Position numbers and translations under genes: made by a program. Below, piece by piece: positions 54,825 to 55,992 of a DNA stretch of 64,000 nucleotides (position 1 is its first letter; the number at the start of each line of letters is the position of its first letter). The stretch comes from Escherichia coli (GTDB lineage: Bacteria; Pseudomonadota; Gammaproteobacteria; Enterobacterales; Enterobacteriaceae), in NCBI RefSeq assembly GCF_017348835.2, contig NZ_CP071375.1. One strand, 5' to 3'. The notes below the pieces were generated by a model, which did not search any database, was not told the origin of the DNA, and was given only the letters and a program-made list of their open reading frames with translations.

Positions 54825-55704
54825 GTTCACAGATAAAACACTCTCCAGGAAACCCGGGGCGGTTCACTCCGCTACACGGGTAGCGATCTTTGAACGATCC
54901 GCAATAGTTTTAAACCCACCGCCGCCCTGCCTTGCCAGCGTGACGAGCTGCTTACTTAATTTAGACATATCTGTCCTCCTTCACTAAGAAATACAGATCA
55001 AGATCTTCTCCCAAAATAAGGAAACGAGCACGATCTGTATTCTGGATTTTCACACAGAACTGATACATCTGGCCCCGACGGTACGGTTAGGTTTTGCGCT
55101 TCCTGCGTCTCGACTGATATCTGTGCATCGGGGTGACAATATGTTGAGTTTTTACGAGGTTCCCCAGCTCGCAGAGCTGTTCGCGGCGTATGCCGTCCTG
55201 ACGTTAGTCAGACTACCTCCATACGTCAGCTTTCACTGACATTGCCATCGATACCGAGTCGAATTTTCTCCTGAAGTTGATACGTCTGCTCTCATGGTTT
55301 CTCCGTGAATGGATGCGTTCCGTGATAAGACGTTATGGTTAAAAAGTGTGCTTAAAGATGCTATTTCCCCAGTCTGAACACCGTGACTACGTGTGCGTCA
55401 GACTGTACAGAGTGCTGAAAGACCGCATTCCGTCTGCTAAGACGGTGCCCTTTCGCGCAGCGTCACTTGGTATCGCTAACGCGCTTACACAAGTGACGCT
55501 GCACATATCCCGCCGCCAAATGCTGCCCTTGCAGATGCCAAATGTTCCAATTGGCATAGCAACGTGCCGCAAATGTTACCGGGATAAGCTGGACGTAAAT
55601 CCATAGAAAACAGCTTTAAGGATGTCGGGCAAACGTTGTTGCCCTGCGTTGAAGTGTACCTTTATCGCGTTTGCGATCACCGTTCTCAAAGGTTAAACGG
55701 TGTT

Positions 55705-55831
55705 ATCGCCCGAAGGCTTCGTCTCTCAGATTACGACGATTTTGGCTGCGGCCACCCGAAGGCATCAGTCTCAGGCCGCGCTTCTTTCCCTATGATATTG
55801 GCTTGCGATCACCCGAAGGCGCTTCTCTCAA
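55705..55831. repeat. Three direct repeats of a cccgaaggc...tctc motif, about 22-24 bp each
   Basis: atcgcccgaaggcttcgtctctcag / gccacccgaaggcatcagtctcag / atcacccgaaggcgcttctctcaa at roughly 46- and 57-bp spacing. Confidence 0.6.
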
Positions 55832-55992
55832 ATCGCTGGCACAGTTCCGCTTGCGCTGAAGCATTGGCTGTTGTCGGAGACAACGGTGTAACGCTCGGAG
55901 AATAAAACTTTCTATGAGATCTTTCAATATATTGCTTTAATTTTCAGCATCTATTAATCTCGATTTATAGCGACATTGATAGGGAAATATTA

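Follow-up and report, generated by a model that had tools for sequence, protein, structure and literature searches.

A STAXI–hairpin–EFASI module as a probable structured RNA leader of an establishment operon in enterobacterial conjugative elements

The non-coding DNA between IS629 and a cold-shock-domain gene in a 64,000-nucleotide stretch of an Escherichia coli contig (NZ_CP071375.1; hereafter the window) is probably the middle of a single non-coding RNA module of ~0.85 kb on the minus strand, composed of STAXI, a hairpin which we call hairpin H, and EFASI. The intact module would be the leader of an ‘establishment’ operon in ICEs of the PFGI-1/ICEclc class at tRNA-Phe. We give this reading a probability of roughly 0.6. 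STAXI (2010) and EFASI, a later Rfam family, have been orphan motifs of enterobacterial conjugative elements whose nature, RNA versus DNA, was left open. Here they are the ends of one promoter-driven unit. This unit holds an undescribed hairpin which tracks an uncharacterised tyrosine recombinase, its EFASI part has an additional pseudoknot helix, and on small relaxase-less plasmids the entire unit stands on its own. The locus in the window is an ordinary, damaged member of the STAXI/EFASI class. These results bear on the establishment of ICEs in new hosts and on the location of the ICE family's unmapped oriT.

The module extends from its promoter at ~55927 to ~55074, and the stretch singled out by an earlier note (55450–55835) covers its middle portion. 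All motifs lie on the minus strand, opposite to the cold-shock-domain gene, whose open reading frame starts at 55993. A search for the element elsewhere, as the note had proposed, found the module conserved: STAXI, a spacer of 150–507 nt, EFASI, the recombinase gene and a second STAXI follow one another in fixed order at ~45 loci in more than 12 genera. The minus-strand RNA fold of the 819-nt module reaches −294.4 kcal/mol against −254.1 ± 7.5 for shuffled sequences (z = −5.4), and 0 of 20 shuffles fold as stably; the shorter stems noticed earlier are real. No open reading frame is conserved across lineages on either strand of the module. The plus-strand frames of 86 and 89 amino acids, already suspected of being spurious, show no conservation. 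Among the 12 E. coli genomes that carry the region, none has an annotated feature in it.

The 5′ part of the module is a full-length match to STAXI (RF01728; 55699–55885, minus strand; 77.2 bits, gathering score 40.5, E = 5e-16, model positions 1–153 of 153), which comprises a 5′ hairpin and three UUCG-capped units. STAXI RNAs are defined by a hairpin/pseudoknot unit repeated in tandem two or three times, often with UUCG tetraloops. The three direct repeats described in this stretch are present (55701–55717, 55747–55763 and 55804–55820) and prove to be STAXI itself: on the minus strand they read as GCC-UUCG-GGN hairpins and CUGAGAG internal loops in three tandem units. All of them end in CCCGAAGGC, and there is a TCTCTCAGAT/TCTCTCAAAT pair in addition. 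Outside the Rfam match, the alignment contains a fourth STAXI-like unit (55659–55694, minus strand; ACCUUU-GAGAACGGU-GAUCGC-AAAC-GCGAU-AAAGGU). It also forms in the MFE structure of the module, and its outer stem varies by lineage yet stays paired (ACCUUU/AAAGGU, GCCUUU/AAAGGC). The STAXI of the window scores below the second-copy type in relatives (77 vs 110–135 bits). A position-anchored pattern recovered 35 units from 44 sequences; 30 of these 35 bear the UUCG cap, and the wobble counts taken from them (23 vs 11) are weak. In relatives, the genes downstream of STAXI encode a protein with an integrase domain, an antirestriction protein and ArdC; the window retains only a recombinase remnant. 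Weinberg et al. (2010), who described STAXI, reported its association with ssb, topoisomerase, antirestriction and integrase genes and raised the possibility that it acts as ssDNA (PMC2864571). Three STAXI transcripts were subsequently borne out by strand-specific RNA-seq in Pectobacterium atrosepticum (PMC4710047), and RT-qPCR found both STAXI and EFASI in E. coli vesicles (PMC12370729).

A sigma-70-type promoter precedes STAXI (55899–55927, minus strand; TTGAAA, 17-nt spacer, TATTCT; consensus match at 9 of 12 positions) and has a predicted start at ~55890–55892. A promoter-like hexamer pair occurs at a fixed offset, with the −10 ending 12–14 nt before STAXI, in 38 of 42 distinct STAXI1 and 23 of 29 STAXI2 upstream regions; other offsets are almost never seen. 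The sequence around the promoter is unrelated between lineages and the offset is kept nonetheless. This promoter upstream of nearly every copy, the fourth unit in many lineages and the occurrence on small ColE1 plasmids are our additions to the STAXI class. No promoter was found within the module, nor at a conserved position between EFASI and the recombinase start codon, and the promoter-like sites in 54800–56100 all lie outside stems. Since neither an internal promoter nor an internal terminator was found, it is suggested that EFASI belongs to one long transcript with STAXI.

Hairpin H (55457–55502, minus strand) is previously undescribed, ultra-conserved in sequence and backed by covariation; it matches no Rfam family. 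The 13-bp perfect hairpin which had first drawn attention to the stretch is confirmed, as its arms (55457–55469, GCAGCGTCACTTG, and 55490–55502, CAAGTGACGCTGC) are 100% complementary and 20 nt apart. The 20-nt tip includes a CGC-GUUA-GCG mini-stem, and the stem contains a 9-bp core (GCGUCACUU/AAGUGACGC). The pattern GCGTCACTT-N(6-30)-AAGTGACGC, which describes this core, has a single match in the 64-kb window, and none of 100 dinucleotide-preserving shuffles contains it. Of 47 related modules, 46 have the hairpin, with one copy per element. Its core is invariant in 44 distinct protein-anchored sequences, which constitute the independent test, given that core invariance in the metagenome loci, found by the exact core, is circular. 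Beside the core, pairing is maintained by covariation: the counts are CG33/GC16/TA9/AT9 for outer pair 1, GC40/CG13/TA7/AT4 for outer pair 2 and TA34/GC37 for the first inner pair, and the observed helix extension was reached in 0 of 1000 flank shuffles. Folding supported by covariation, a check suggested at the outset, holds for the flanks of hairpin H as well as for the EFASI pseudoknot helix. The hairpin extensions contain 41 G.U-type vs 15 A.C-type positions, an asymmetry which tells the folding strand and in which RNA and ssDNA of that strand look alike. According to RNAalifold, hairpin H is the sole alignment-wide helix of the STAXI–EFASI spacer. The tip is variable (8 to 22 nt between lineages), and the flanks within 12 nt differ by lineage, with the inverted repeat present and no shared motif. 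The stem is perfect in the window and has a single bulged G in Pantoea-type lineages.

A search with the hairpin pattern alone returned 51 further loci. Each of them has a homolog of the recombinase (Integrase_1, 44–99% identity) in the same orientation, 300–480 nt downstream. Metagenome palindromes with the same 9-mer core (‘Group B’) were set aside as unrelated terminator/REP-type elements, because they sit on high-GC soil contigs, right after stop codons and with no recombinase nearby; such matches are expected of an 18-base pattern run against a very large database.

Several hairpins surround hairpin H on the minus strand. Two small ones lie 5′ of it (55523–55557): AUGCC-loop-GGCAU at 55535–55557, with the 13-nt loop AAUUGGAACAUUU in the window and a GNRA tetraloop (AUGCC-GCAA-GGCAU) in distant lineages, and CUGC-AAGG-GCAG at 55523–55534. 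The CCAWTTGGWACATTTGG block was considered as a repeated protein-binding motif and rejected, as it is a hairpin loop which is GNRA-capped in other lineages. Hairpin 2 (CCGUCU-UAGC-AGACGG, 55430–55445) is seen in the alignment and in the MFE fold; elsewhere its position holds a hairpin of different sequence, for instance CCACG-UACGA-CGUGG, a comparison made by eye and with no statistical control. The UCUGAC hairpin (CAGUCUGA...UCAGACUG, 55370–55405) has a conserved UCUGAC 5′ arm; in the alignment its CTGA columns do not vary, and distant lineages that have no STAXI keep the block. Unconstrained MFE comparisons of sense and antisense were noisy and contradictory, and EFASI favoured antisense with RNA parameters. 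The strand question was then judged by position-defined wobble counts instead.

EFASI (RF02957; 55111–55262, minus strand) is matched over model positions 1–133 of 133 with 86.1 bits (gathering score 51.2, E = 1.7e-17). It follows STAXI after 436 nt and precedes the recombinase start codon by 142 nt, in line with the Rfam description, which puts EFASI several hundred bp past STAXI and ahead of an integrase gene (quoted in PMC12370729). The match falls outside the coordinates of the earlier note. A conserved 3′ extension (55074–55110, minus strand) pairs back into EFASI: 55074–55081 (CGUCGGGG) forms a pseudoknot-type helix with 55126–55133 (CCCCGAUG). This helix is found in 68 of 68 distinct sequences with 12 compensated sequence combinations, and 38 of the 68 versions contain a U.G wobble. 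An inverted repeat, AATACAGATC...GATCTGTATT (54990–55041, minus strand), stands directly 5′ of the recombinase Shine-Dalgarno. It is lineage-specific, and other lineages hold different repeats or hairpins at this position.

Downstream of the module, intact relatives carry an operon which comprises an Integrase_1-family tyrosine recombinase, small proteins, an antirestriction protein and ArdC. E. coli LF82 has the operon intact, and E. coli PE164 is identical to the window. The intact recombinase gene of LF82 (WP_000040995.1) encodes 296 aa with the Pfam domains Integrase_1 (2e-60) and Phage_int_SAM_2 (3e-35); all catalytic residues are conserved, and a PDB sequence search with the recombinase found no relative at E ≤ 1. 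In the window, 34 codons remain (54867–54968, minus strand), annotated by PGAP as the pseudogene ‘phage integrase N-terminal domain-containing protein, incomplete’. The gene is cut by IS629 (53557–54866, plus strand, 1310 bp), recognised by its ALIL frameshift pseudoknot match and by terminal inverted repeats read from the sequence. With the IS629 insertion and its associated deletion, the remaining operon was lost and the module orphaned. The suggestion that the stretch is mobile-element debris is correct in part: the module is a conserved functional component of an ICE, but here it has lost its operon to IS629.

The complete module, including its promoter (~0.8 kb), also resides on six ColE1-type plasmids that have neither relaxase nor recombinase. 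In these copies the hairpin tip has compensatory changes of its own. In two cases a module-bearing small plasmid shares a strain with a large module-bearing plasmid. Pantoea, Mixta, Kosakonia and Cronobacter have in common a nearly identical small plasmid that has no relaxase (96–100% identity over a 211-nt DUF2442–STAXI probe), which indicates horizontal spread. A natural Pantoea plasmid of this kind measures 4.4 kb (NZ_CP155070.1). What the small plasmids were found to share with large conjugative replicons is the module; the whole-plasmid search against the plasmid collection was saturated by ColE1-origin matches, and further segments may be shared. The same search showed the HTH-rop-ori backbone to be common among plasmids that have no module. 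Each small plasmid has its own cer-like XerCD core outside the module, and no XerCD/cer-like site was found within it. Because six small plasmids keep the whole module with no gene following it, it must also be able to act alone, as a stable non-coding RNA or in cis, and not merely as a 5′ UTR.

From the observed family membership, strand, conservation, covariation and promoter position, we infer the following mechanism. Transcription would start from the sigma-70 promoter (55927–55899), ~6 nt before the first hairpin. The transcript would present, in order, the three STAXI units, the fourth unit, the chain of hairpins around hairpin H, EFASI and the pseudoknot helix at ~55074, and the module would act as a folded RNA. 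The recombinase gene would be read from the STAXI promoter. Hairpin H may be a docking site for a conserved protein, as its helix is selected and its central 9 bp are also invariant in sequence; the most parsimonious candidate is the product of the downstream recombinase gene, or some other factor that the element encodes. In this way the module would control or support the expression or the action of establishment genes. Of the four options in the earlier note, a regulatory RNA comes closest, given the STAXI match, the conserved promoter position and the published RNA-seq of STAXI in another species, with the RNA function itself being a prediction. Protein-binding sites, another option, are conceivable for the sequence-invariant stem of hairpin H alone, as a putative site.

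A more specific proposal, which we hold only tentatively and consider rather unlikely as it stands, is that hairpin H is a handle by which the Integrase_1 tyrosine recombinase recognises folded nucleic acid, and that the small ColE1 plasmids make use of the recombinase that a co-resident ICE or large plasmid supplies. By analogy, this could take two forms: a STAXI–H–EFASI RNA might serve as cofactor or guide, comparable to the IS110 bridge RNA, or the hairpin might be an attC-like site in ssDNA. If true, it would provide the first structured-RNA or hairpin-DNA partner for an uncharacterised recombinase family and a function for STAXI and EFASI, which have been orphan motifs for more than 15 years. 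Against our main reading of the module as RNA, RNA recognition elements are seldom perfect duplexes of invariant sequence, which are more typical of the DNA hairpins of relaxases, Rep proteins and recombinases.

Hairpin H might instead be a folded ssDNA site of the adjacent recombinase, an idea we regard as unlikely. Integron attC sites and the folded attP of CTX phage are recombined as hairpins, and by this analogy the small plasmids would carry a site for recombination in trans, e.g. cointegration with an ICE or a large plasmid. The constant 300–480 nt between hairpin and recombinase gene, kept even at 44–50% protein identity, fits this view, as do the full set of catalytic residues and the strains in which recombinase-less small plasmids coexist with large module-bearing ones. 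The invariant core with a tip of 8 to 22 nt resembles the variable terminal structure of attC, and covariation beside the core requires intrastrand pairing. Furthermore, two lineages (L043 and L177-type) show a 13-8-13 layout (GTGGCGTCACTTT-N8-AAAGTGACGCCAC) typical of tyrosine-recombinase core sites. However, the 8-nt spacer is limited to these lineages. Core sites of the loxP/FRT/dif type have arms of 11–13 bp and a spacer of 6–8 bp, and the 13-bp arms of the window are separated by 20 nt; a spacer of 20–22 nt is incompatible with a duplex core site. Hairpin H also has no extrahelical bases and no conserved flanks resembling the R/L boxes at the base of attC. It is embedded in a promoter-driven unit with RNA hallmarks (UUCG and GNRA caps, pseudoknot), and the small plasmids, which already own cer-like XerCD sites, retain the entire 0.8-kb module and promoter rather than the hairpin alone.

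An origin of transfer, with the small ColE1 plasmids as oriT-only hitchhikers, seems improbable. The authors of the ICEKp2 study found no oriT, and that of the ICE family is unmapped (PMC6761156). Such a role would agree with an inverted repeat that is conserved, has a sequence-specific stem and occurs once per element, and also with the spread of a relaxase-less plasmid over four genera and the sharing of the module with large conjugative replicons. We know of no rules for the nic sites of MOBH relaxases. Within ~10 nt of hairpin H, where the flanks are lineage-variable, there is no conserved sequence that could be a candidate nic site, and the hairpin follows the recombinase gene, not traI, which is ~8 kb away. 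The small plasmids keep a full RNA-like module instead of a minimal oriT, and the operon points away from the hairpin, opposite to the usual leading-region arrangement of F-like plasmids (PMC11541004).

There is little to recommend the view that STAXI, hairpin H and EFASI are ssDNA signals of the transferred strand, i.e. Frpo-type promoters, or primosome/priming sites (ssi), that serve early expression or the synthesis of the complementary strand in the recipient. An ssDNA role was raised by Weinberg et al. (PMC2864571), and the gene set of STAXI (ssb, topoisomerase, antirestriction, integrase) is that found behind Frpo in plasmid leading regions (PMC2864571, PMC11541004); moreover, the several STAXI copies per element are all co-oriented with the genes. 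However, each STAXI has an ordinary duplex-type promoter at a fixed distance upstream, and no −35/−10 hexamers lie inside stems. Going by the wobble asymmetry, the fold belongs to the sense strand, but that of Frpo to the template strand, and UUCG caps are RNA-specific stabilisers (PMC2864571). On the ColE1 plasmids, the motif-sense strand would be the leading-strand template, judging from the orientation of RNAI, which likewise speaks against this role.

Finally, a long structured 5′ UTR as in cspA or another regulator of the cold-shock-domain gene, as once proposed, or functionless debris, is hardly credible: the stretch adjoins that gene, a Klebsiella relative also has one a few kb upstream of the module, and the module in the window has lost its operon, but all motifs are on the other strand, a search at E ≤ 1 brings up no cspA-type Rfam family, the similarity to some relatives ends at ~55892, ~100 nt before the start codon, and in these relatives a RES-domain gene replaces the cold-shock-domain gene while the module is kept. 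The link was rejected on these grounds (strand, homology boundary and cargo replacement), and the gene is unrelated, divergently oriented, exchangeable cargo. Conservation with covariation in more than 12 genera means that the module is not debris as a class.

Comparison with known systems places the proposed structured leader as follows. Frpo/ssi elements (Masai & Arai 1997; Samuel et al. 2024, PMC11541004) are likewise multicopy, structured and non-coding and precede ssb, anti-restriction and similar establishment genes. They rebuild the −35/−10 inside a long imperfect hairpin of template-strand DNA, whereas the module has a normal promoter ahead of the structure, a sense-strand fold and RNA-type tetraloops. 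Integron attC and CTX attP share with hairpin H a conserved stem, a tip of very variable length and a tyrosine recombinase gene nearby; they differ by their extrahelical bases and R/L boxes, by the promoter-driven, RNA-like setting of the module and by its uncharacterised Integrase_1 family. The ColE1 cer site with Rcd RNA is also a non-coding plasmid block, with a promoter, a small structured RNA and a setting related to a recombinase, but the module has no XerCD core and the small plasmids have cer-like cores apart from it.

The IS110 bridge RNA and the IscB omega-RNA, formerly called HEARO, would be analogous as large structured non-coding RNAs directly upstream of, and co-oriented with, the gene of a DNA-manipulating enzyme. 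In contrast, the enzyme here is a tyrosine recombinase, and the likeness is one of gene arrangement; we know of no RNA partner of a tyrosine recombinase. The last two systems are the Rfam families themselves. EFASI agrees in its full-length match and in having STAXI upstream and an integrase gene downstream, and differs by ~37 conserved nt and a covarying pseudoknot helix beyond the 133-nt model, as well as by its suggested place in a long STAXI transcript where Rfam guesses at a trans-acting sRNA. For STAXI, the full-length above-threshold match, the tandem UUCG-capped units, the enterobacterial mobile element and the integrase/antirestriction neighbours all correspond, and nothing is different in kind.

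The structured stretch between IS629 and the cold-shock-domain gene contains members of two known Rfam families. A scan of 54800-56600 at E <= 1, repeated at the gathering threshold, gave two matches in all, both full length and both on the minus strand: STAXI (RF01728; 55699-55885, 77.2 bits, gathering score 40.5) and EFASI (RF02957; 55111-55262, 86.1 bits, gathering score 51.2). The triple direct repeat described in the earlier note was recovered by a repeat search (copies at 55701-55717, 55747-55763 and 55804-55820, each with CCCGAAGGC at its end), and its cccgaaggc...tctc pattern is the reverse complement of the GCC-UUCG-GGN hairpins and CUGAGAG loops of three STAXI units. 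The same search returned the 13-bp perfect inverted repeat, with arms at 55457-55469 and 55490-55502, 20 nt apart. This hairpin falls between STAXI and EFASI, which are 436 nt apart, and no Rfam family matched it in the scan at E <= 1; its core pattern (the central 9 bp) has a single occurrence in the window and none in 100 shuffles. The 86- and 89-aa ORFs were rightly suspected to be spurious: none of the 12 complete E. coli genomes with the region has a feature annotated there, and no ORF within it is conserved across relatives. As a whole, the observation concerned a real feature, and the minus-strand fold of the 819-nt module, which comprises STAXI, hairpin-bearing spacer and EFASI with a 3′ extension, has a z-score of -5.4.

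The orientation toward the cold-shock-domain gene had to be corrected, since the strand that carries the motifs is not the one assumed. That gene (55993-56421, plus strand; 142 aa, with two CxxC pairs, CKNC...CPYC, in the C-terminal part) therefore runs against STAXI and EFASI. In IDR1900005638-type relatives it is replaced by a RES-domain gene, and similarity to the window ends at about 55892. Because of this opposite strand and this replacement, the gene is exchangeable cargo and not the regulated gene. A cold-shock-domain gene recurs in the traG-module cargo slot of E. coli and Klebsiella relatives (locus L005, 7230-7685), in Klebsiella without adjoining the module.

The host island is best seen in E. 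coli PE164, the genome nearest to the window (99.9% identity), and in the intact relatives LF82 and IDR1900005638, which carry an integrative conjugative element (ICE) at tRNA-Phe. On the motif strand, T4SS genes (TraG, TIGR0375x ICE proteins) and variable cargo precede STAXI, spacer, EFASI and a 296-aa ‘integrase domain-containing protein’; small ORFs, an antirestriction protein, ArdC, TraI, integrase and tRNA-Phe follow. By Pfam, the 296-aa protein is a tyrosine recombinase (Integrase_1, 2e-60; Phage_int_SAM_2, 3e-35), with Antirestrict and ArdC as neighbors; the relaxase is of the PFGI-1/MOBH class. In the window, IS629 (53557-54866) has replaced everything between the traI-adjacent genes and recombinase codon 34, leaving a remnant (54867-54968) that PGAP calls an incomplete pseudogene. 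An IS200-type tnpA with an STnc490 RNA (143.8 bits; minus strand, 57586-57709 and 57118-57627) adjoins a truncated traG N-terminal gene; it is a second IS event on the same ICE, whose decay is clear. Just past the truncated T4SS remnant of the island, in a part of locus L001 (24044-32980) that corresponds to the window beyond ~59 kb, lies a large toxin-like cargo gene of 8.9 kb, whose product is annotated as a TcdA/TcdB catalytic glycosyltransferase domain protein. A 10-bp inverted repeat (54990-54999 / 55032-55041, AATACAGATC...GATCTGTATT) just 5′ of the Shine-Dalgarno of the truncated recombinase gene may act as an operator or form a hairpin affecting translation; the repeats at this site differ in other lineages, Pantoea-type elements, for example, carrying direct repeats of ACAGCTGTGGGTT. 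The Rfam matches naRNA4 (63 bits, 37443-37513) and ES036 (42.5 bits, 4989-5031) elsewhere in the window are REP-related chromosomal sRNA families unrelated to the module.

The arrangement is widespread. An alignment of three recombinase proteins retrieved 47 loci from GTDB species representatives, including Phytobacter, Citrobacter, Klebsiella, Proteus, Morganella, Erwinia, Serratia, Yersinia, Pantoea, Mixta, Enterobacter, Leclercia, Rosenbergiella and others. In these related loci, Rfam scans found STAXI and EFASI in a nearly invariant order on the gene strand: STAXI, a 150-507-nt spacer, EFASI, ~130 nt, the recombinase gene, ~55 nt and a second STAXI. Of the 47 modules examined, 46 contain the hairpin; it occurs once per locus, always within the spacer, and is absent wherever EFASI is absent.

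Folding with covariation, which the earlier note had proposed as a check, supports the hairpin. RNAalifold on 27 diverse spacers identified it as the only alignment-wide helix. The 9-nt cores GCGTCACTT and AAGTGACGC are invariant over 44 distinct sequences while tip and flanks vary. Across 71 distinct sequences the first outer pair is CG (33), GC (16), TA (9) or AT (9), the second GC (40), CG (13), TA (7) or AT (4), and the first inner pair TA (34) or GC (37). When right flanks were dealt to other sequences, the observed helix extension was reached in 0 of 1000 trials. The tip mini-stem also changes in a compensatory manner (CGC/GCG, GTG/CAC, CCGC/GCGG, GTCGC/GCGAC, CCCGC/GCGGG, CTGGC/GCCAG). 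Since flanking pairs and tip covary around an invariant core, the hairpin is selected as a helix, with an additional constraint on the sequence of its central 9 bp.

Metagenome and viral collections scanned with the core pattern alone yielded 153 loci, many of them palindromes that are unrelated or due to chance. At 51 of the 153 a recombinase homolog (tblastn, 44-99% identity) starts 300-480 nt downstream in the same orientation, including lineages with a tip of only 8-10 nt and lineages lacking STAXI. Core invariance in these matches is circular, the exact core being the search pattern; the gene association is not. High-GC soil contigs (L080-L082, L088, L113 with two copies, L117, L120, L121, L144, L153, L155 and others) carry perfect palindromes with 16-26-bp arms around the same core, mostly directly after stop codons. 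They probably represent an unrelated terminator/REP-like repeat family.

Conservation of EFASI continues ~37 nt past the Rfam match. The 3′ end of this extension pairs with a segment just 5′ of the EFASI closing stem (helix region 55074-55133 in the window), forming an 8-10 bp helix in 68 of 68 distinct sequences from the window, L007-L053 and L055-L197, with 12 compensated sequence combinations. The helix is of pseudoknot type relative to the EFASI outer stem and is missing from the Rfam model. A U.G wobble, an A.C mismatch on the opposite strand, occurs in 38 of the 68 versions.

Several lines of evidence, the whole-module fold included, support transcription as one RNA. In the aligned 90 nt 5′ of STAXI, lineages are unrelated in sequence, yet at a fixed position they share a -35 resembling TTGAC and a TANNNT -10. 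Hexamer pairs scoring at least 8/12, whose -10 ends 12-14 nt 5′ of STAXI, were found in 38 of 42 distinct upstream regions of the first STAXI copy and 23 of 29 of the second, and almost never at other offsets (0 to 44). The predicted window promoter is TTGAAA-17-TATTCT (55927-55899, minus strand). Between EFASI and the recombinase start codon there is no positioned promoter, only three scattered matches in 42 leaders. Wobbles in the hairpin extensions (41 G.U-type versus 15 A.C-type) point to the motif-sense strand, as does the EFASI extension helix. UUCG caps 30 of 35 STAXI units recovered by a position-anchored pattern, and GNRA caps a spacer hairpin in distant lineages. Weinberg et al. left undecided whether STAXI acts as RNA or ssDNA, favoring RNA owing to its UUCG loops (PMC2864571). 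Strand-specific RNA-seq confirmed three STAXI loci as transcripts in Pectobacterium atrosepticum (PMC4710047), and STAXI and EFASI were amplified from E. coli vesicle RNA (PMC12370729).

The module also occurs complete on six ColE1-type plasmids of 4.4-8.4 kb (L004 and L207-L211; NZ_CP155070.1, NZ_CP032706.1, NZ_CP101598.1, NC_019222.1, NZ_CP082907.1, NZ_CP069322.1) from Pantoea (two), Cronobacter, Rahnella, Mixta and Kosakonia, a count leaving out a seventh, near-identical 4.4-kb Pantoea plasmid. All six are typed non-mobilisable and lack an annotated relaxase or recombinase gene. Their common backbone consists of a DUF2442 gene, a ~800-nt gap, an HTH gene and rop. Within the gap are promoter, STAXI, hairpin-bearing spacer and EFASI with its extension, and no sense gene lies behind the module. 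Being complete there without a gene behind it, the module is more than a 5′ UTR; it is autonomous. In the plasmid lineage and its metagenomic relatives the hairpin tip has undergone compensatory changes of its own; selection therefore acts on the structure on small plasmids too. Each plasmid has a good cer-like XerCD core elsewhere, and two of the six co-reside with a large module-bearing plasmid.

The analysis establishes which families the motifs belong to, their strand, their conservation and covariation, and where the promoter lies. We propose that the module would act as a single promoter-proximal structured RNA, which in ICEs would form the leader of the recombinase/anti-restriction operon, the invariant stem being a candidate protein docking site. 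For the hairpin, three DNA-level rivals have to be weighed. A folded recombination site of attC type, acted on by the adjacent recombinase, remains in contention, given the linkage of the hairpin to the recombinase gene, the invariance of its stem, the variability of its tip and, in two lineages, a 13-8-13 layout. An origin of transfer likewise remains: oriT is not mapped for this ICE family (PMC6761156), and the relaxase-less small plasmids spread, near-identical ones occurring in Pantoea, Mixta, Kosakonia and Cronobacter. An Frpo/ssi-type ssDNA signal is the weakest of the three, since the promoter is of the ordinary duplex type and the fold lies on the sense and not on the template strand.

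The window locus itself is an ordinary, IS-damaged member of a known arrangement. It is of value for what it shows about the class: STAXI and EFASI belong to one promoter-driven module, whose hitherto undescribed hairpin is invariant in sequence, supported by covariation and linked to an uncharacterised tyrosine recombinase. STAXI was described by Weinberg et al. (2010) as a pseudoknot unit in two or three repeats near Ssb, topoisomerase, antirestriction and XerDC-integrase genes (PMC2864571). Their remark that it sometimes lies near c4 RNAs agrees with the C4 antisense RNAs (RF01695) that Proteus, Morganella and Serratia relatives carry 0.3-3 kb 3′ of their recombinase gene (L009 6703-6790, L012 6530-6618, L027 6740-6827, L043 4231-4317). 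The Rfam text places EFASI, of unknown function, several hundred bp 3′ of STAXI and 5′ of integrase genes (quoted in PMC12370729), and the window anatomy is exactly this.
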